From Fidelibacterota bacterium (GTDB lineage: Bacteria > Fidelibacterota > UBA2242): 63,595 nt of DNA. Below are positions 2,843 through 41,066 of this stretch, piece after piece. Each line of letters begins with the position of its first letter. Position 1 is the stretch's first letter. A model generated the notes under the pieces. It saw only the letters and a program-made list of their open reading frames with translations, was not told the DNA's origin and ran no database searches. Location of the stretch: contig JAGNGI010000005.1 of NCBI GenBank assembly GCA_018002295.1, positions 1 to 63,595 on the forward strand, read 5' to 3'. Position numbers and translations under genes: made by a program.

Positions 2843-4229
2843 ATTTTTCTAACGGACATAATTTACAAATATTCATGTTACAATACCGACGTGTAAACTC
2901 AATTATTCCCTGAGTTAAATAATTTTGGTGCAAAGTGATAGTATCCAGTGGCAATCGGTTCAGAGCAACCTTAACTGATCCCGGCACTTCAAGGCACTCA
3001 ACCTGCTCCGCGAAAGTCGCGGCTTTATCAATTAATTCATACTGATTGTCGAGGGACGCTATCGCCCAGCTGAATGGCAATAGCAGATTACTCAACAAAT
3101 CATTAAGGCGCTGAACGCCGATCAGCATTTTTCCCGGCTGTTGTTTCAATAATGGATGATTGCGCCAGAGTCCGTCCGGTTGTTGAAACATTTCACTTGC
3201 ATAGCGTCGAATATCAGTAAAATTTTTGGCATTTTGAATTACTCTTAACCAAGTTTCAGCTAGATAGTTAGGATAAAATTTATTAATTATCTGGGCCAGT
3301 GCCGCAATCCGCAAAGTCGGAAAATTCGGCGGTCGCGATCCGGCGAAATGCCAGTCCGCTGATTCCAATTCTTCCAGTTCGTATTTTTGCGATATTTTCA
3401 CCCAGATTTTATATAAACCTTCTGAATATTTTGTATTTCTGATGAATACTTTTAATTCAGGTTTGGTCAGAAATCCAGCCGAACCAAATAGAAGACTTTC
3501 CAATACTATAATGCGCTGTTCGGGATCAGTATCTCGTAAAATTTTCCGTATCAATTCAAGGGTCACTTTTTGGCTTAGTATTCCAAACATTTTCCGATTC
3601 CGACTGTATCCCAGCACATCAGCCAGTCCTTCATATAATGTCTGCTCAGCGCCTTTTGTTAAAATCAGTGAGCGCCATATTTGGGCTTTACGTTTGAAGC
3701 GAATTTCGGCGAATGTTTTTAGAACTTGGTTGAGATCGTCGTTAGATAGATGTTTCCAGCTTAAGCAAGCATATTCATCAGGTGCTGAGATCGCAAATGG
3801 CGTTATGATCAATGTGGGAATAATACGGTTGTCACAAGATTTTATCGGTAGTAATTTACCTGAGTTTAAAACCACGTGTAAAATCACATTATTGTAATGA
3901 GGGTCCCGGTCGTGTCCATGGCTGTACCAGTCATTCGATTCGAGATGTAATTCAACGTCACCTCGCTCGAACTTTTCATTTAACATAATCAAAGCATCGT
4001 GAAAATCCGGACCTTCAGTTTCGTTTCGATTCCCGGGTGATAATATACTGAGCGAGTAACCTTCAACCGTTTGCAAATCCGCGAGATTGAATTCCTGATT
4101 CAACCAAGCTTTGTAAAGGGATTTTTCCTTTTTGGTAATGGATATTTCTGGTTCGGCAATCCGGTTTGGGATACAGTTAATCAAGGCTACCTTGCTTCCT
4201 TTTTTCTTCGTATTGTTCCTTTTGGACAA
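2829..4229 (-). CDS. DUF2851-family protein
   Basis: PGNRN..EGPDF.DA, GDVELH...SNDWYSHGH..DP.YNNVILHVV, NFPTLRIAALA and a C-terminal C..C..CP motif are typical of this family. Confidence 0.8.
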   Translation of the reverse strand: MSKRNNTKKKGSKVALINCIPNRIAEPEISITKKEKSLYKAWLNQEFNLADLQTVEGYSLSILSPGNRNETEGPDFHDALIMLNEKFERGDVELHLESNDWYSHGHDRDPHYNNVILHVVLNSGKLLPIKSCDNRIIPTLIITPFAISAPDEYACLSWKHLSNDDLNQVLKTFAEIRFKRKAQIWRSLILTKGAEQTLYEGLADVLGYSRNRKMFGILSQKVTLELIRKILRDTDPEQRIIVLESLLFGSAGFLTKPELKVFIRNTKYSEGLYKIWVKISQKYELEELESADWHFAGSRPPNFPTLRIAALAQIINKFYPNYLAETWLRVIQNAKNFTDIRRYASEMFQQPDGLWRNHPLLKQQPGKMLIGVQRLNDLLSNLLLPFSWAIASLDNQYELIDKAATFAEQVECLEVPGSVKVALNRLPLDTITLHQNYLTQGIIEFTRRYCNMNICKLCPLEKYAQK

Positions 4230-4890
4230 TCATTTGGTTACGTAAATCAGCCACGCAATCATTCATTGTCGGATAATCACTCAAACGGACTTCTTTCCCA
4301 ATATGCACTTCGACTATTCCGGGAATGATCGAAAGACTCTTGTTCGGTACACAATGCCGAGCTCCGAGAATCAATACCGGAAGAATCGGCAAGTTATGAA
4401 TTTCAGCCAGCCGGAAAGCGCCCTTTTTAAAAGGTGCAATTTTACCATCGTAACTGCGAGTGCCCTCTGGACTGACAGCAATACTGAGCCCGTTCCGGAT
4501 TAATTCTTTAGCAACACGGTTAATTACCGTATATGATTTGCGAGGTCTTTTACGGTCAACTGGTATATGACGCGCCAGATTAAGTGTCCATCCAAAAAGA
4601 GGAATCTGAAATAATTCCTTTTTTGCCATAAAACGAATAGGAACTGGTAAAGCCGCCATCAAGATCGGAATATCCAGAGCACTTTCATGGTTGCTAATTA
4701 CGATTTTTGAACCTCGATTTACTATATTTTCAAGGCCATGAACCTGTAATTTGACTCCAAGAAATTGGAGAATCATCTGCGACCATTTGCGCATCATTGT
4801 ATTGTGGCTACCCGGCAAAGCCATACTCAGGCTACCAAATACAATCGTAACTAAAACTACCCAGATTACAGCAAAGAAATTCCTAATCAT
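4177..4890 (-). CDS. plsC: 1-acyl-sn-glycerol-3-phosphate acyltransferase
   Basis: NHESALD (NHxxxxD), FMAKKELF and SPEGTRS motifs. Confidence 0.9.
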   Translation of the reverse strand: MIRNFFAVIWVVLVTIVFGSLSMALPGSHNTMMRKWSQMILQFLGVKLQVHGLENIVNRGSKIVISNHESALDIPILMAALPVPIRFMAKKELFQIPLFGWTLNLARHIPVDRKRPRKSYTVINRVAKELIRNGLSIAVSPEGTRSYDGKIAPFKKGAFRLAEIHNLPILPVLILGARHCVPNKSLSIIPGIVEVHIGKEVRLSDYPTMNDCVADLRNQMIVQKEQYEEKRKQGSLD

Positions 4891-36315: not shown

Positions 36316-36323
36316 TGATGTGG
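36316..36323 (+). repeat. Left att-like direct repeat TGATGTGG
   Basis: Identical to 40989-40996; lies between the displaced terminator and the island interior. Confidence 0.6.
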
Positions 36324-36416
36324 TGTTTGCTGAACGATGTCAGAACTTTCTTTGAGCAAAATCCAGAGGATTTTGCTGAATGACCCGCCCAGCGTTTCCG
36401 CTCGCTTGACGGCGAG

Positions 36417-36502
36417 CAAAACAGAAAAATTTTATTAACATTATTTAGTTGCGCGCCTCCCAAATTTTTTTCAATTAAGGAAAAGAAAATTTTTCTGTTT
36501 TG
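36417..36502. repeat. 17-bp perfect inverted repeat inside a structured non-coding region
   Basis: CAAAACAGAAAAATTTT (36417-36433) and AAAATTTTTCTGTTTTG (36486-36502), 52-nt spacer. Confidence 0.8.
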
Positions 36503-36642
36503 ATATTCTGCTAACGCAGAATTACAGAAACGCTTTCCCGCCCCCGGACGAGGCGAGCGGGCAAAAATTCATTGGTGGGAATAACATTCAGACCCCTTTT
36601 TTTCCTGTCCACTAGAAGCCCACGGCGGTTTTTTCGGCGGGC

Positions 36643-37146
36643 TTAATTATTGTTCCTAATCTTTATCGCTTCTTCAACCGCATCAGCGATGTATTGTGAA
36701 ATCCAATCGTATCTCTCTTTACTATTTTGTCCGGTAGGATTATAACATTTAACTATTGCAGATAATTTTTTACCACTATCGCCATAACCTATATAATCAA
36801 ATGGATTTTCGCCTTTATCGGAAATATACCCTTCACTATTTTTTAGCCCATGAATATAAATGCCAACGACGCCCATACCTTCATTCCACGACTTTATTAT
36901 TTCGTAATTTATCCATTTTCTGTTTGCGGTTTTACTTCCAACAAGCACAATAGTGCATGACCTATATTTCATTTGTTCATTTATCCACCTCTTAATGGCG
37001 TCATCACCAGCACTTATAATTCGTTCCCAATCATTATCGGGGGCGGGTTTATTTCCTTCTACAACTCCTATATTGCGAACCTGGGATGCCAGCCAACAAT
37101 CGGGTCTGTAATGAAAACTATAAAATACTTGTCTTTTTGTTGTCAT
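36643..37146 (-). CDS. TIR-domain protein (MTH538/DUF1863, ThsB-like)
   Basis: KRQVFYSFHY, SCTIVLVGSKTANRKWINYEIIKS with the catalytic Glu, GVVGIYIHGLKN, GENPF. Confidence 0.85.
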   Translation of the reverse strand: MTTKRQVFYSFHYRPDCWLASQVRNIGVVEGNKPAPDNDWERIISAGDDAIKRWINEQMKYRSCTIVLVGSKTANRKWINYEIIKSWNEGMGVVGIYIHGLKNSEGYISDKGENPFDYIGYGDSGKKLSAIVKCYNPTGQNSKERYDWISQYIADAVEEAIKIRNNN

Positions 37147-37150
37147 ATCT

Positions 37151-37552
37151 TTACTTAAACAAGGAATAAATTAAAGTTGTAATGCAGAGTAGTGATAAAT
37201 AAAAAATCAAAAGCGTCTGGGAAAACATTGATGGCAACCAGCAATTTTTTCTATTTTTCTTAAATTCATTCGTATCCATAGAAAAATCAATGTCTTTCAC
37301 ATCGAGCACCCTAACGTGGTCGTATAAAGCCCTAAATAATCTCTCTTGCGAAAGAAAATATCCATCTAAAACCCAAAATATTATTATAAGAAAATAGGCA
37401 ATCAAAATATAATTTTGGTTTGTATCTTTGGTAAACAACACAAAAAGTCCAGTTATCAAAGTAATCACCCAACCTCTAATGAAAAATAAATTTCCCGCCA
37501 TTCGGTTAATTGCACCCTGAATAAACTCTAAATGTTGTTGCTTATTTTCCAT
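37151..37552 (-). CDS. Small 3-TM membrane protein, putative TIR-signal effector
   Basis: HLEFIQGAINRMAGNLFFIRGW, two TM helices, polar linker DGYFLSQERLFRALYD, C-terminal TM; 4 nt from the TIR gene. Confidence 0.7.
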   Translation of the reverse strand: MENKQQHLEFIQGAINRMAGNLFFIRGWVITLITGLFVLFTKDTNQNYILIAYFLIIIFWVLDGYFLSQERLFRALYDHVRVLDVKDIDFSMDTNEFKKNRKNCWLPSMFSQTLLIFYLSLLCITTLIYSLFK

Positions 37553-37561
37553 TTTTAATTA

Positions 37562-39571
37562 TTAAATACTCTCATCAACGATCTTTACTGTTCTTTTCCT
37601 TAATTCAGCTTTCTCGTTAATAATATCTCTGGTCTCATTAGTAATTTTTTGAATCTCATTTTGATCATTACTTATAGGCAGAATAATTTCACTCAATCTA
37701 TTTCCAATAGTTGAAATTGTTGCCTGTACAAATGTTTTAGAATCTATTTGCTTTCTTACAATTTTACTATTCAAGAGATAAAACAAATAATACGGATCAA
37801 TAAATTCTGTATTTAGTACCCTGATTTTTCTTAAATGACTTTGAATAATTATCTTTAAATCTAATTTTGTAACCATGGCAGTACGTCCAATCAAAAATGT
37901 TCCGTCATTTACGAATAAAATGTCTTTCTCTTGAATATCTTGAGATTTCTTGTATTGATTGTATATATCATCAGAAACGGCTTTTACTGGATCAAATTTA
38001 ATTTCCCAATTAACAATGTCACTAGTTCTTACAAAAGGTATCTCTCCTGTTCCATAGAATTGCGAACCTATTTCGTTACCTCTTCTAATTTGCAAAATCC
38101 CTTTGTCTATTAACTCTCCAATTGAGATTAACGAATATTTGCCACTATTTTTTAATACCTCTAACTCCTTGCGGATTTCAGGATTATAGTACTCAGGAAT
38201 AAAAATATGATCGTTTAAGTCTGAATAAGCGATACGAAATCCTAAATGTTCATCTGTAATTTTATTTTTGTTGTTATATTCATTAAAATTCTTTGCAATA
38301 GCAGGAAGGTCATCATCTAAGATTTTACTACTGTTGGTTTTATCTATTTTATAGACGGGCTTTCCGTTTTTATTATGACCAACATTATAGGCAATTGCCA
38401 TAAAAATTGATTTTGGCTTCTCGGTAGTTTTTTTCAAAAATAAAACACTAGTTTTAGTATGTGTGCTTGGTTGAAAAGTTTCTTGAGATAAACTTACAAT
38501 TCCAATAACTGAGGCAACGCTTGAGATATATTCCCAGATATATCTATCAGACGGATTACCAAAAATACCTTCTGGTAAAACAATGCCAAGGCGACCGCCC
38601 TCGCGGAGCAATTGGAGGCATCTTTCAATAAATAAGACTTGGGGGGATTGCTTATCAAGTAATTTTTTTGTTTGTAGCCATTTTTCGCCATTTTCCCACA
38701 TGTGGCCTAGTTGATATTGACTCAATAATTCCCTCCCAACAACAGGAATTTTTGCCCCAAAAGGAGGATTTGTAAGAACAACATCAAAAGTGCCAAGCTG
38801 GATATTTTCTTTGGTATCTTTGCTCCATTTAATCGGAACCTCTAAGCTGTTTTCGCAATAAATATGAAATTCATGGTCGCCAAGTAATGAAAGGTAAATT
38901 TTTGCTATTTTTGCCAAGAAAGCATCTTTATCAATTCCAGTAAGATAAAAATTTTTCTTATTATTGGAAATAAAATGTCTTAATGTATAGGCGAGAAATC
39001 CCCCACTACCACAGGCAGGGTCAATAATCCGCTCCCCTTCTTGAGGAGACAAAACATCAATCATCATTTGCACAACATTTCTTGGTGTGAAAAATTGCCC
39101 TTCTCCACCTCTAAAAGAAGTGCCTATCAACTCTTCAAAGGCATCACCAATAACATCTCTGTCTGCATTTATGATTGAATAATCTTCTAATTTTGAAACT
39201 ATAAAAGAAAGTTCTTCAGCTTTTATTTCTATTTTTTCATTTTGCTCAAAAATATCAGGATAATTATTTTTGACTTTCTCAAATAAATCATCAATTCTTC
39301 TTTGAAACAAATCATAATTTTCATCGGGGCGGTTAGAAAATTCAACTATGTTTCTGCTATTCTTTTCATCATAAATTTTACAAAAAAGAAGCCGCATTAT
39401 ATTTTGTGCGATCTTTTCATCCCTTGTAATGCCAGTTACATTGCCAGCAAAATAGTCCCGAATTTCTCGAAATATCAACTTAAGATTGTTTATTGGTTTC
39501 AAGTCAACAATCTTGATCATTTTTTTAACTCTTGTTTTTTCGGCTAAATCAAATAAATATAAAGTTTCCAT
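37562..39571 (-). CDS. N6-adenine DNA methyltransferase (HsdM-like) fused to a C-terminal HsdS-like target recognition domain
   Basis: LLFCKIYDE, GQFFTPRNVV, motif I IDPACGSGGFL, motif IV TNPPFG, GRLGIVLPEG; C-terminal TRD-like IPFVRTSDI...GTFLIGRTA...QATISTI..RL.EI.LPI. Confidence 0.88.
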   Translation of the reverse strand: METLYLFDLAEKTRVKKMIKIVDLKPINNLKLIFREIRDYFAGNVTGITRDEKIAQNIMRLLFCKIYDEKNSRNIVEFSNRPDENYDLFQRRIDDLFEKVKNNYPDIFEQNEKIEIKAEELSFIVSKLEDYSIINADRDVIGDAFEELIGTSFRGGEGQFFTPRNVVQMMIDVLSPQEGERIIDPACGSGGFLAYTLRHFISNNKKNFYLTGIDKDAFLAKIAKIYLSLLGDHEFHIYCENSLEVPIKWSKDTKENIQLGTFDVVLTNPPFGAKIPVVGRELLSQYQLGHMWENGEKWLQTKKLLDKQSPQVLFIERCLQLLREGGRLGIVLPEGIFGNPSDRYIWEYISSVASVIGIVSLSQETFQPSTHTKTSVLFLKKTTEKPKSIFMAIAYNVGHNKNGKPVYKIDKTNSSKILDDDLPAIAKNFNEYNNKNKITDEHLGFRIAYSDLNDHIFIPEYYNPEIRKELEVLKNSGKYSLISIGELIDKGILQIRRGNEIGSQFYGTGEIPFVRTSDIVNWEIKFDPVKAVSDDIYNQYKKSQDIQEKDILFVNDGTFLIGRTAMVTKLDLKIIIQSHLRKIRVLNTEFIDPYYLFYLLNSKIVRKQIDSKTFVQATISTIGNRLSEIILPISNDQNEIQKITNETRDIINEKAELRKRTVKIVDESI

Positions 39572-39576
39572 AAAAA

Positions 39577-40584
39577 TTATTTACATCTGTTATGTGCACG
39601 CACTACAAATTCCATGAAGTCTAGAGTTTCATCTAACGAGTGGTCGGTCATCGAAACATTGCACCACCTATGACCATACCTAACATTACTTGAATTATGC
39701 TTAATTTGCATTTCAACAAGAGGATTCACATGCATTATTTGAATGCTTGAATCGTCTCCTTCTTCCTTTTTGGAAGAACGCCAAGCTGGTTGCCATGTTG
39801 TACCTCTCTCAGATTTTCTAAATGCCTCTAAACCTTTTGAAATATTAAGAAGACATACTGGACATTTAGTAATATCCTCTTTTTTCGTAGGGAAAATATT
39901 CGTCGGTAATGAAATTTTGTTATTAATATTTTGTTTTTCAAGTATTTGCTTGATTTTGGTATAAAGCGAATCAAAATCAGCTCCGTATAAATCAACAGCT
40001 AAAGCAAGTCCTAAAATAGCATAGGTTTCAACCGAGTCCCACCAATTACACGCTTCAAGGGCAGGAATCACGCACGAATTTTGTGTCCATAAAGTATCTG
40101 ACCAATGTTTTAGAGTGTTAATGTGTGGATACCAATGTTCAGGAAGGGCGACAAATCTTTCTGGCATTTCATGTACTTTATCTGAGGGGAATTTAAGCTC
40201 CTTACCTTTCGCGTCTTTAACTACGAAAACTAAAATCTGACCGTCGTCTTGCCCGCCAATTTCTATTCTTTCTATTTTTCTTGCAAAACCTGGTTTATTT
40301 TCTGCAACAATTAAAGGATGCCATCTTAAATTTCTATTTGAAAAAGGGGCTTTGCCTTGCCGACCTCTTGTGCATATAGCATCTCTCTGTATTTTTCCGC
40401 CACCTAATCCCAAACCACCATCTCTTGTATAACTAATTTTACCGTATTCCTTTTCGAAGTCTTTTTTGGCTTCTTCATCGGGAATAGAATCGGAAATCGT
40501 TTTTGATATTGAATCGCATAATTCAATAGCCTTACGATCTAAATCTGTTAGAAAACTCGCACTTATTGTTCTTCCTGTGGCCAT
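39577..40584 (-). CDS. Putative restriction endonuclease with a C-terminal His-Me finger (HNH); resembles the BstXI family
   Basis: CPVC...MHVNPL...HNSSNVRYGHRWCN..MTDHSLDETLDFM; directly upstream of the methyltransferase (5 nt gap). The BstXI resemblance is from memory of the family pattern. Confidence 0.7.
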   Translation of the reverse strand: MATGRTISASFLTDLDRKAIELCDSISKTISDSIPDEEAKKDFEKEYGKISYTRDGGLGLGGGKIQRDAICTRGRQGKAPFSNRNLRWHPLIVAENKPGFARKIERIEIGGQDDGQILVFVVKDAKGKELKFPSDKVHEMPERFVALPEHWYPHINTLKHWSDTLWTQNSCVIPALEACNWWDSVETYAILGLALAVDLYGADFDSLYTKIKQILEKQNINNKISLPTNIFPTKKEDITKCPVCLLNISKGLEAFRKSERGTTWQPAWRSSKKEEGDDSSIQIMHVNPLVEMQIKHNSSNVRYGHRWCNVSMTDHSLDETLDFMEFVVRAHNRCK

Positions 40585-40588
40585 GTGT

Positions 40589-40783
40589 TTATTTTATTAA
40601 TTCCTCAATCGGCACATTTAGTGCCTTCGCAATTTTTTCAAGCGTCTCAATCGTCGGGTTATGTTGCTTGCCTGCCTCTATGTAAATAATAGTATTATTG
40701 GAAATATCGGCAAGTCGAGCCAGTTTTTCTTGCGACAAACCTAGTTTTTCTCTCAGCAGCTTTATTTTACTTGATTCTACCAT
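40589..40783 (-). CDS. XRE-family HTH regulator, putative RM controller (C) protein
   Basis: IKLLREKLGLSQEKLARLADISNNTIIYIEAGK.NPTIETLEKIAKAL; 64 aa; first gene of the operon, 4 nt before the endonuclease. Confidence 0.85.
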   Translation of the reverse strand: MVESSKIKLLREKLGLSQEKLARLADISNNTIIYIEAGKQHNPTIETLEKIAKALNVPIEELIK

Positions 40784-40820
40784 ATTATAATAGCAGTATT
40801 AAATTGTGTTATAAGAATTG

Positions 40821-40848
40821 TATACTAAATATTTTTATCCATAGTATA
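40821..40848. promoter_or_regulatory. Candidate operator (inverted repeat) upstream of the XRE gene
   Basis: TATACTA (40821-40827), 14 nt, TAGTATA (40842-40848), 37 nt upstream of the XRE start. Confidence 0.4.
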
Positions 40849-40924
40849 ATATTACCAAAATATTTGGAAATAGTAAAGAACAAAGGGAGTTCCTTAATCT
40901 TTTCTGTGCTGGGAGGGTGGGGCA

Positions 40925-40978
40925 AGGAAAAGAAAGAAAGGCCCGCCGAAGCGAGGGGCGAAGCCCCGAGTGAGGCAG
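40925..40978 (-). terminator. Island-encoded GC-rich hairpin plus U-rich tract immediately downstream of tRNA-Ala
   Basis: Minus strand GCC...GGGGC-TTC-GCCCC...GGCGGGC followed by CTTTCTTTCTTTT. Confidence 0.5.
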
Positions 40979-40988
40979 CTAATCAATA

Positions 40989-40993
40989 TGATG

Positions 40994-40996
<3 letters not shown>
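40989..40996 (+). repeat. Right att-like direct repeat TGATGTGG
   Basis: Overlaps the last three nucleotides of the tRNA-Ala gene; identical to 36316-36323. Confidence 0.6.

Positions 40997-41066
<70 letters not shown>

Follow-up and report, generated by a model that had tools for sequence, protein, structure and literature searches.

A probable type V Thoeris gene pair at the tail of a restriction-modification operon on a tRNA-Ala-inserted cassette in an uncultivated bacterium

Positions 36,643 to 37,552 of contig JAGNGI010000005.1, from a Fidelibacterota genome assembly (GCA_018002295.1), hold two minus-strand genes that we describe here in the context of the whole 63,595-nucleotide stretch of DNA that was analyzed, hereafter the window. 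We conclude, with a probability that we put at about 85%, that these genes constitute an antiphage system of Thoeris type V, arranged in the order thsF-thsB, in which a TIR-domain protein (ThsB) would signal to a signal-activated membrane effector (ThsF), and that they form the tail of a restriction-modification (R-M) operon carried on a cassette inserted at a tRNA-Ala gene. The assignment to type V rests on homology of the effector, on operon linkage, and on the catalytic residue of the TIR. The pair itself is of an already known kind and is the same as the system that PADLOC lists as PDC-M50, and it is the R-M-welded, tRNA-inserted cassette that may be new.

The interval contains exactly two open reading frames (ORFs). 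The first, thsF (37151..37552, minus strand), encodes a 133-residue three-helix membrane effector that matches a PADLOC PDC-M50A model, and the second, thsB (36643..37146, minus strand), encodes a 167-residue TIR of the DUF1863/ThsB type with a WxxxE motif (W78, E82); just 4 nt lie between the thsF stop codon (TAA, 37151-37153) and the thsB ATG (37144-37146). A preliminary description of this DNA, made from the sequence alone, had drawn attention to a TIR with an intact catalytic glutamate situated 4 nt downstream of a 133-residue protein, and the reading frames agree with it, the motif WINYEI occupying residues 78-83 with both W78 and E82 in place. The TIR is related to Pfam PF08937 (ThsB_TIR; E 1.5e-26), to the PADLOC ThsB1 model PDLC00433 (E 1.4e-67), and over its full length to PADLOC PDC-M50B (PDLC04688; E 1.8e-64). 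Among structures in the Protein Data Bank (PDB) it matches chain 8wcf_A at the sequence level (E 1.5e-37), and the solved ThsB structures 6LHY and 9B7D align to it with E values of about 1e-24.

The partner is a small membrane protein. A 19-residue Kyte-Doolittle hydropathy scan of ThsF gives three peaks scoring at least 1.6, centered near residues 31, 57, and 121, with a charged linker of 43 residues between the second and third helices, and the AlphaFold2 model of the monomer (pLDDT 97.1) places helices at residues 2-43, 47-82, and 112-132; together these bear out the arrangement proposed in the preliminary description, of two transmembrane (TM) helices, a polar linker, and a third TM helix. 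PADLOC model PDLC04686 (PDC-M50A) matches the protein over its full length (E 2.1e-49). ThsF has a basic cytosolic helix whose sequence is conserved (FWxLDGYFLSQERLFRxLY), and the conserved residues of the family include R17, K/R26, W28, F59-W60, D63, E70, R71, R74, Y77, and R81, most of them located on the N-terminal cytosolic helix and on the helix that follows TM2. The conserved basic residues (R17, K/R26, R71, R74, and R81) all belong to cytosolic helices, and it is plausible that the conserved residues of these helices line a nucleotide-binding pocket.

Pfam searches of ThsF with E values up to 1 recovered no SIR2, SLOG, Macro, or SLATT match, so that the earlier statement that the TM protein lacks the first three of these holds, and the only Pfam families returned were DUF3278, DUF3784, and SdpI at E values of 0.004-0.02, all under their cut-offs. 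SLATT is likewise absent from the 25 families that are commonest among the matches of 106 diverse ThsF relatives. No NCBIfam model matches either ThsF or ThsB, a PDB sequence search with the ThsF family profile gave 0 matches, and a Foldseek comparison of ThsF with the PDB yielded nothing under an E value of 1.

Yirmiya et al. defined Thoeris types V to XI in a preprint of December 2025 (bioRxiv 10.64898/2025.12.03.692087), in which type V consists of a TIR protein and a three-TM effector that was annotated as DUF2270 and renamed ThsF. The type V TIR was found to synthesize 3′ cyclic ADP-ribose (3'cADPR) upon infection and the system to confer phage defense; cells carrying the Bacillus thuringiensis DAR 81934 system were intoxicated by exogenous 3'cADPR and not by other isomers, and the 3'cADPR sponge Tad1 led to loss of defense (bioRxiv 10.64898/2025.12.03.692087). 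Homologs from two Bacillus strains defend. In the same work AlphaFold3 models ThsF as a homo-heptamer that spans the membrane and has pockets of positive charge where its protomers meet, and membrane targeting was inferred there from toxicity together with modeling (bioRxiv 10.64898/2025.12.03.692087).

Several lines of evidence connect the window pair to this type. The TIR that we number P0271 is the validated B. thuringiensis protein, 100% identical to the sequence in Table S1 of the preprint, and the gene directly downstream of it (locus L083) encodes a 141-residue protein, which is ThsF. The window ThsF is 48% identical to this B. thuringiensis ThsF over 127 residues (BLASTP, E 1e-42), the B. 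thuringiensis protein aligns with our family profile at a probability of 100% (hhalign, E 1e-51), and it too is matched by PADLOC PDLC04686 (E 1.8e-48). Because of this identity, the profile match, and the shared PADLOC model, we assign the window pair to type V Thoeris as thsF-thsB. The same Table S1 lists TIRs resembling that of the window as 'DUF2270 - Type V', one of which (IMG 2627664495) is 79% identical to the window TIR.

The preliminary description had envisaged a Thoeris-like pairing of a ThsB TIR with a small three-TM effector, and this is the type V configuration. Its suggestion that the two proteins be run against PADLOC is answered by full-length matches of both to PDC-M50 models, and conservation of the pair across genomes is seen in the adjacency of ThsF and TIR genes in about 71 of 76 informative loci. 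Its view of the system as uncharacterized does not survive the 48% identity to a validated ThsF and the listing as PADLOC PDC-M50: the TM protein maps to a described effector of a named system, which lowers the novelty and nothing else, and the mechanistic guess that it offered is a good one that the preprint has overtaken.

ThsF is a large family with a sparse but broad distribution. The window protein has 687 close relatives, one of them from Odinarchaeia, and the family as a whole comprises 4,815 clusters at 50% identity (E up to 1e-3). When each species was represented by a single genome, ThsF was detected in 217 of 185,579 species, mostly Patescibacteria with a scattering of Pseudomonadota, Chloroflexota, Planctomycetota, and other phyla, and also in archaeal metagenome-assembled genomes (MAGs) belonging to Nanoarchaeia, Thaumarchaeota, and one unclassified archaeon. 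Linkage to a TIR was counted over 80 fetched loci that have a ThsF relative: a ThsB-type TIR lies directly downstream on the same strand in 68 and directly upstream in three, and the remainder are loci cut by contig ends (four), degraded loci (two), and loci seemingly without a TIR (three). The catalytic glutamate corresponding to E82 of the window is kept in 80 of the 81 partner TIRs that were aligned.

Some loci carry two ThsB genes, since additional ORFs of about 123 or 225 residues located between or after the genes prove to be PF08937 TIRs; two TIR genes are present at L007, L024, L036, and L051. We also note that at least three further size classes of ThsB occur beside ThsF, of about 123, 145, and 225 residues (L007, L017, L024, L028, L029, and L068; L038, L039, L046, L050, L051, L060, and L063), and that the 123-residue class has weak matches to the SLOG family STALD as well. 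The identity of ThsF to its window counterpart is uncorrelated with that of the accompanying TIR (Spearman rho 0.14, p 0.29, n 64), and therefore one conserved effector is combined with shuffled, diverse TIRs. This is what would be expected if the two proteins are coupled through a common diffusible signal, for which co-evolving protein contacts are not needed.

ThsF also occurs as part of larger proteins. P0146 and P0150 have an N-terminal SLOG domain (LD_cluster2) fused to a C-terminal module homologous to ThsF (E about 1e-39), and the P0146 gene (locus L081, 5001-6137) belongs to the same operon as a TIR_2 gene and the gene of a 152-residue protein, with patatin and nSTAND genes adjoining. 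Because SLOG-ThsF fusions share an operon with a TIR gene, they support the role of ThsF as an output module of TIR signaling. A third protein, P0170, is a fusion of an 8xMP domain (PF24838) to a C-terminal ThsF module; the two parts show no homology (hhalign probability 0.2%), and an origin of the module by internal duplication of the 8xMP domain was accordingly rejected. The SLOG-ThsF fusions resemble the putative Thoeris effectors listed as 'SLOG and 4TM' in Table S2 of the preprint, which gave no defense in Escherichia coli (bioRxiv 10.64898/2025.12.03.692087). The P0146 architecture may be that '4TM SLOG' class, whereas the ThsF of the window stands alone and has no SLOG domain.

Comparison with other defense systems places the pair more precisely. 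The window genes are adjacent full-length matches to PDC-M50A and PDC-M50B, a bioinformatic candidate in PADLOC-DB v2 whose name implies no mechanism (Payne et al., bioRxiv 10.1101/2024.01.29.577857). The PDC systems are 145 untested candidates recovered through 'guilt by embedding' in R-M, BREX, and DISARM loci (bioRxiv 10.1101/2024.01.29.577857), and no paper in the literature collection that was searched names 'PDC-M50'. Type I Thoeris of Bacillus cereus MSX-D12, in which ThsB is paired with a SIR2-SLOG ThsA, draws its ThsB from the same DUF1863/PF08937 family (about 40% identity, E 1e-24 to 6LHY), and the logic by which infection elicits a signal that activates an effector is probably common to both, although the type I output is depletion of NAD+ and that of the window pair would be at the membrane. 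SIR2 and SLOG domains are absent from all five proteins of the window operon and from the product of the Zn-ribbon gene just downstream.

Type II Thoeris, composed of ThsB and a 2TM-Macro ThsA/ThsC and signaling through histidine-ADP-ribose (His-ADPR) or imidazole adenine dinucleotide (IAD), resembles the proposed workings of the window pair in that a TIR signal activates a membrane-anchored effector, one thought to act by clustering of its TM helices. The window ThsF lacks a Macro domain, has three TM helices, and differs in its conserved cytosolic helix; it matches no PADLOC ThsA model, only those of PDC-M50A. Small membrane effectors that bind nucleotide signals directly and oligomerize are also found in type VII Thoeris (the SLATT effector ThsH, responding to canonical cADPR) and in CBASS and Pycsar, but ThsF belongs to a different sequence family and has no SLATT match. 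Because SIR2-SLOG, Macro, and SLATT domains are all missing, the window pair is not type I, II, or VII.

Even within type V the window pair has its own character. The systems of B. thuringiensis DAR 81934 and Bacillus sp. 1NLA3E likewise consist of two genes, for a TIR and a three-TM effector of about 135-140 residues, but in B. thuringiensis the TIR gene comes first whereas the effector gene does so in the window, and the window pair is the tail of an operon controlled by a C protein, on a tRNA-inserted cassette.

A number of observations weigh against the type V reading and should be set beside it. The functions ascribed to the locus are predictions, and the MAG from which it comes belongs to Candidatus Marinimicrobia/Neomarinimicrobiota, to judge from the names in its TrpRS cluster. 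In B. thuringiensis the validated ThsB is a canonical TIR of 252 residues with an N-terminal extension, whereas the 167-residue ThsB of the window is of the DUF1863 type and about 40% identical to BcThsB; in the preprint the window TIR falls in cluster 2661146773, which includes TIRs of type XI, and for these none of the known signals could be detected (bioRxiv 10.64898/2025.12.03.692087). The behavior of type V itself is not uniform, as the Vibrio cholerae system gave no defense in E. coli and that of Bacillus sp. 1NLA3E made 3'cADPR, yet was not intoxicated by it (bioRxiv 10.64898/2025.12.03.692087), so that the activating ligand may differ within the type. ThsF does not match the Pfam family DUF2270 (PF10028) from which the type V effector took its annotation, at E values up to 1, and a scan of the operon resolved neither a canonical terminator nor an internal promoter.

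The absence of a DUF2270 match extends to the B. thuringiensis ThsF, which has no HMMER match to PF10028 either. Among the 106 diverse members of the ThsF family 24 match PF10028 below threshold (best E 1.4e-5), as compared with 32 for DUF3278 and seven for 8xMP, also sub-threshold, and we regard the DUF2270 label as a loose one that denotes a remote relationship.

The genomic setting of the pair was overlooked in the preliminary description: thsF and thsB are the 3′ end of an R-M operon located on a small inserted cassette. The operon consists of five minus-strand genes, for a C protein, an endonuclease, a methylase, ThsF, and ThsB, separated by gaps of 4, 5, 9, and 4 nt. The first gene (40589..40783) encodes a helix-turn-helix (HTH) control (C) protein (Pfam HTH_3, E 2.6e-19; PADLOC Control_protein, E 4.1e-11). 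The third (37562..39571) codes for an N6-adenine DNA methyltransferase (Pfam N6_Mtase, E 1e-39; PADLOC MTase_II, E 4.4e-85) with a C-terminal S-like target-recognition domain, residues 485-663 matching PADLOC Specificity_I, and it ends 9 nt before thsF. Between these two lies a gene for a 335-residue probable type II restriction endonuclease (39577..40584), a weak assignment made from position together with matches at E values of 1e-5 to 0.02 (PADLOC REase_II, E 1.1e-5; Pfam DraIII/BstXI C-terminal, weak).

The strongest promoter-like site on the minus strand extends from 40812 to 40784 and agrees with consensus at 10 of 12 positions (ATAACA, a 17-nt spacer, and TATAAT). This sigma-70-like match abuts the C-protein ATG, ending one base before it, which suggests that the C transcript may be leaderless. 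The near-palindromic sequence CCAAATATTTTGG (about 40865-40877), conserved from cassette to cassette, may serve as the C-box operator. A scan for promoters and terminators inside the operon was uninformative, with 26 promoter-like sites where 19.4 +/- 4.9 are expected. Co-transcription of thsF-thsB with the R-M genes is inferred from their close spacing, and given the five-gene operon structure the Thoeris pair is probably expressed from the C-protein promoter jointly with the R-M genes.

The same layout recurs elsewhere with different R-M genes. At L044, L047, and L042 the C proteins are 56-88% identical to that of the window but the R-M genes are unrelated, being N4/N6 or C5 methylases and different endonucleases, and thsF begins between 16 nt inside and 4 nt past the last R-M gene. 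More generally, Pfam analysis of 53 same-strand ORFs immediately upstream of thsF identified seven N6_N4 methylases, five C5 methylases, four ResIII proteins, and several endonuclease families. Of 71 loci whose upstream sequence extends for 1.5 kb or more, 33 contain an ORF bearing a DNA-methylase motif in the 3 kb ahead of thsF, and such ORFs make up 39 of 164 near thsF as against 9 of 212 elsewhere (odds ratio 7.0, p 1.5e-8). Restriction is not mentioned in the type V preprint (bioRxiv 10.64898/2025.12.03.692087).

The boundaries of the insertion could be located by comparison with a near-identical strain (L088, GCA_022706055.1), in which the TrpRS is identical and the flanks are 99.1% and 96.9% identical, while the five genes are missing. 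This empty site, together with direct repeats, defines an inserted cassette of 4,665 bp (36324..40988) with a GC content of 33.5%, compared with 38.2% for the whole window; we regard the five-gene cassette as horizontally acquired. It begins 4 nt past the 3′ end of a tRNA-Ala(GGC) gene (40993..41066, minus strand; identified with ARAGORN and Rfam). An 8-bp direct repeat, CCACATCA, is found at both flanks on the minus strand, the left copy (40989..40996) overlapping the 3′ end of the tRNA and the right copy (36316..36323) lying at the other side of the insertion. The cassette at L044 likewise abuts the 3′ end of a tRNA-Ala, and among 40 loci scanned nine have a same-strand tRNA or tmRNA upstream of the cassette; this enrichment is only modest because many contigs are cut. 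No integrase is encoded within the 4,665 bp.

The non-coding ends of the cassette recur in cassettes from other hosts. Window segments 40784-40988 and 36324-36420 were compared with the cassette ends of L042, L044, L045, L047, L051, and L036. The non-coding left end (40784..40988, minus strand) contains the promoter-like site, and about 150 nt of it are conserved with L044, L045, L047, and L042. In the non-coding right end (36324..36642, minus strand) it is the last ~90 nt, terminating in CAACAA(A/C)CACCAC, that are conserved with L042 and L044; this conservation stops exactly at the junction, and homology to the empty-site strain restarts at 36323. The combination of conserved ends with unrelated internal R-M genes suggests a modular slot in which R-M systems may be swapped.

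Some features of these ends are recorded as observations in their own right. The sequence CACCAC always closes the right end of the cassettes compared, and it resembles the 3′ end of a tRNA. The right-end non-coding stretch of about 320 nt (36324-36642) contains several GC-rich hairpins, such as GCTCGCCGTCAAGCGAGC and GCCCGCCGAAAAAACCGCCGTGGGC, set in AT-rich surroundings. Rfam detected no family in the island or in the 510-nt GC-rich spacer that follows thsB, its only matches in the window being two tRNAs, and a reading of the right end as an integron attC-like site, made by eye, was rejected, as there is one RYYYAAC-like core and no GTTRRRY partner. Long terminal inverted repeats are absent from the window cassette. 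At L045, however, an inverted repeat of 103 nt (96% identity; 22-124 and 4187-4289) brackets the whole HTH-RM-thsF-thsB cassette, and at L047 there is one of 52 nt (1-52 and 3194-3245), limited by the contig; because the arms reach the contig ends these repeats may be an effect of assembly. Finally, the empty-site strain (L088, 6848-7001) contains a duplication of the tRNA-Ala 3′ end plus terminator (~56 nt), with a 154-bp GC-rich stretch between the copies that reads as a disrupted second copy of tRNA-Ala and may have been left behind when something was earlier inserted into or excised from this same site.

How the pair would act can be proposed by homology. ThsB, through its catalytic Glu82, would sense phage infection and convert NAD+ into a second messenger derived from ADP-ribose, for which 3'cADPR (1''-3' gcADPR) is the best guess. 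ThsF, with its N-terminal cytosolic helix, two TM helices, basic cytosolic helix, and third TM helix, would assemble into a homo-oligomeric ring in the membrane, bind the messenger in pockets of positive charge that lie between its protomers, and breach the membrane, so that the infected cell would be killed or arrested. The proposal starts from homology, gene linkage, and conservation of the catalytic residue, which our analysis establishes, and borrows production of the signal, its identity, oligomerization, and membrane damage from the validated B. thuringiensis homolog. The identity of the signal is its weakest link, given the different type of the validated TIR, the shared cluster with type XI, the ~40% identity to BcThsB, and the failure of 3'cADPR to trigger the Bacillus sp. 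1NLA3E system.

A variant in which the architecture is that of type V but the messenger is some other derivative of ADPR, such as a different isomer of cADPR, a molecule formed by base exchange, or a new compound, with the ThsF lineage tuned to it, is a possibility worth keeping in view, if a doubtful one. The window TIR clusters with type XI TIRs whose product is unlike known signals, the 1NLA3E system is not triggered by 3'cADPR, the window ThsF is just 48% identical to the 3'cADPR-responsive protein, and H7, a near-invariant position in the family, is a tyrosine in that B. thuringiensis ThsF. Against this, both type V TIRs that have been assayed made 3'cADPR, as does BcThsB, the nearest functionally characterized DUF1863 TIR (E 1e-24), and the B. 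thuringiensis ThsF shares most of the family's conserved basic and aromatic residues (R17, K/R26, W28, W60, D63, E70, R74, Y77, and R81).

Two further models change the roles more radically, and we judge both unlikely. Many bacterial TIRs are NADase effectors, including those of SPARTA, the CBASS and Pycsar effectors, and some stand-alone TIRs, and with 133 residues ThsF has little soluble mass in which to form a ligand pocket, so one can imagine the membrane protein as sensor or anchor, responding for instance to perturbation of the envelope at phage entry, with the TIR killing by depletion of NAD+. We give this very little credence: exogenous 3'cADPR alone intoxicated cells carrying the homologous system and a 3'cADPR sponge ended its defense, a conserved ThsF with diverse, shuffled, and sometimes duplicated TIRs is what one usually sees where variable sensors serve one common effector, and the ThsF module is found fused to a SLOG ligand sensor beside a separate TIR. 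Somewhat less improbable is that the pair is an accessory requiring the adjacent R-M proteins, for example an addiction or back-up module that answers failure of restriction or loss of the R-M system. In its favor, the linkage is at the level of the operon, the last R-M gene overlapping thsF or ending at most 9 nt from it both in the window and at L024, L028, L029, L031, L036, L042, L044-L047, L052, and L063; the enrichment of methylase-motif ORFs near thsF described above (odds ratio 7.0) points the same way, as does the discovery of PDC systems by PADLOC through their embedding in R-M, BREX, and DISARM loci. Yet the B. thuringiensis system, which has no R-M genes adjoining it, confers defense when its two genes are cloned by themselves, a methylase is missing from the vicinity in about half of the loci, and the R-M systems that are associated are unrelated (N4/N6, C5, and gamma-N6 methylases and type III-like ResIII), which argues for co-carriage rather than a specific protein partnership.

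Type V Thoeris driven by its own messenger thus remains our interpretation of the pair, and the question of how it came to be where it is leads to a broader proposal. We hypothesize that the cassette is one of a family of small defense cassettes, probably mobilized in trans. In its full form, according to which integrase-less cassettes target the 3′ ends of tRNA and tmRNA genes, a single C-protein promoter/operator drives interchangeable R-M genes along with thsF-thsB, and the two defenses move jointly across phyla, this proposal is tentative, and we would not yet call it probable. If it is true, restriction as a first line of defense and type V abortive signaling as a second would be co-regulated and would travel together, and cassettes would have been transferred between phyla as distant as Marinimicrobia, Patescibacteria, and others, presumably with mobilization in trans.

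The window pair confirms that type V Thoeris, which is known from a single preprint and has its experimental validation in Bacillus, reaches into the uncultivated Marinimicrobia, and because the cluster to which its DUF1863 ThsB belongs also feeds type XI it provides a useful test of whether type V employs a single messenger. The thsF-thsB pair has been joined repeatedly to the 3′ end of unrelated R-M operons controlled by C proteins, and at least here this has occurred on a strain-variable insertion at a tRNA gene. If the arrangement is general, it would represent a compact case of layered, co-regulated, and co-mobilized immunity, and thsF-thsB would offer a practical marker for new R-M specificities in uncultivated bacteria.

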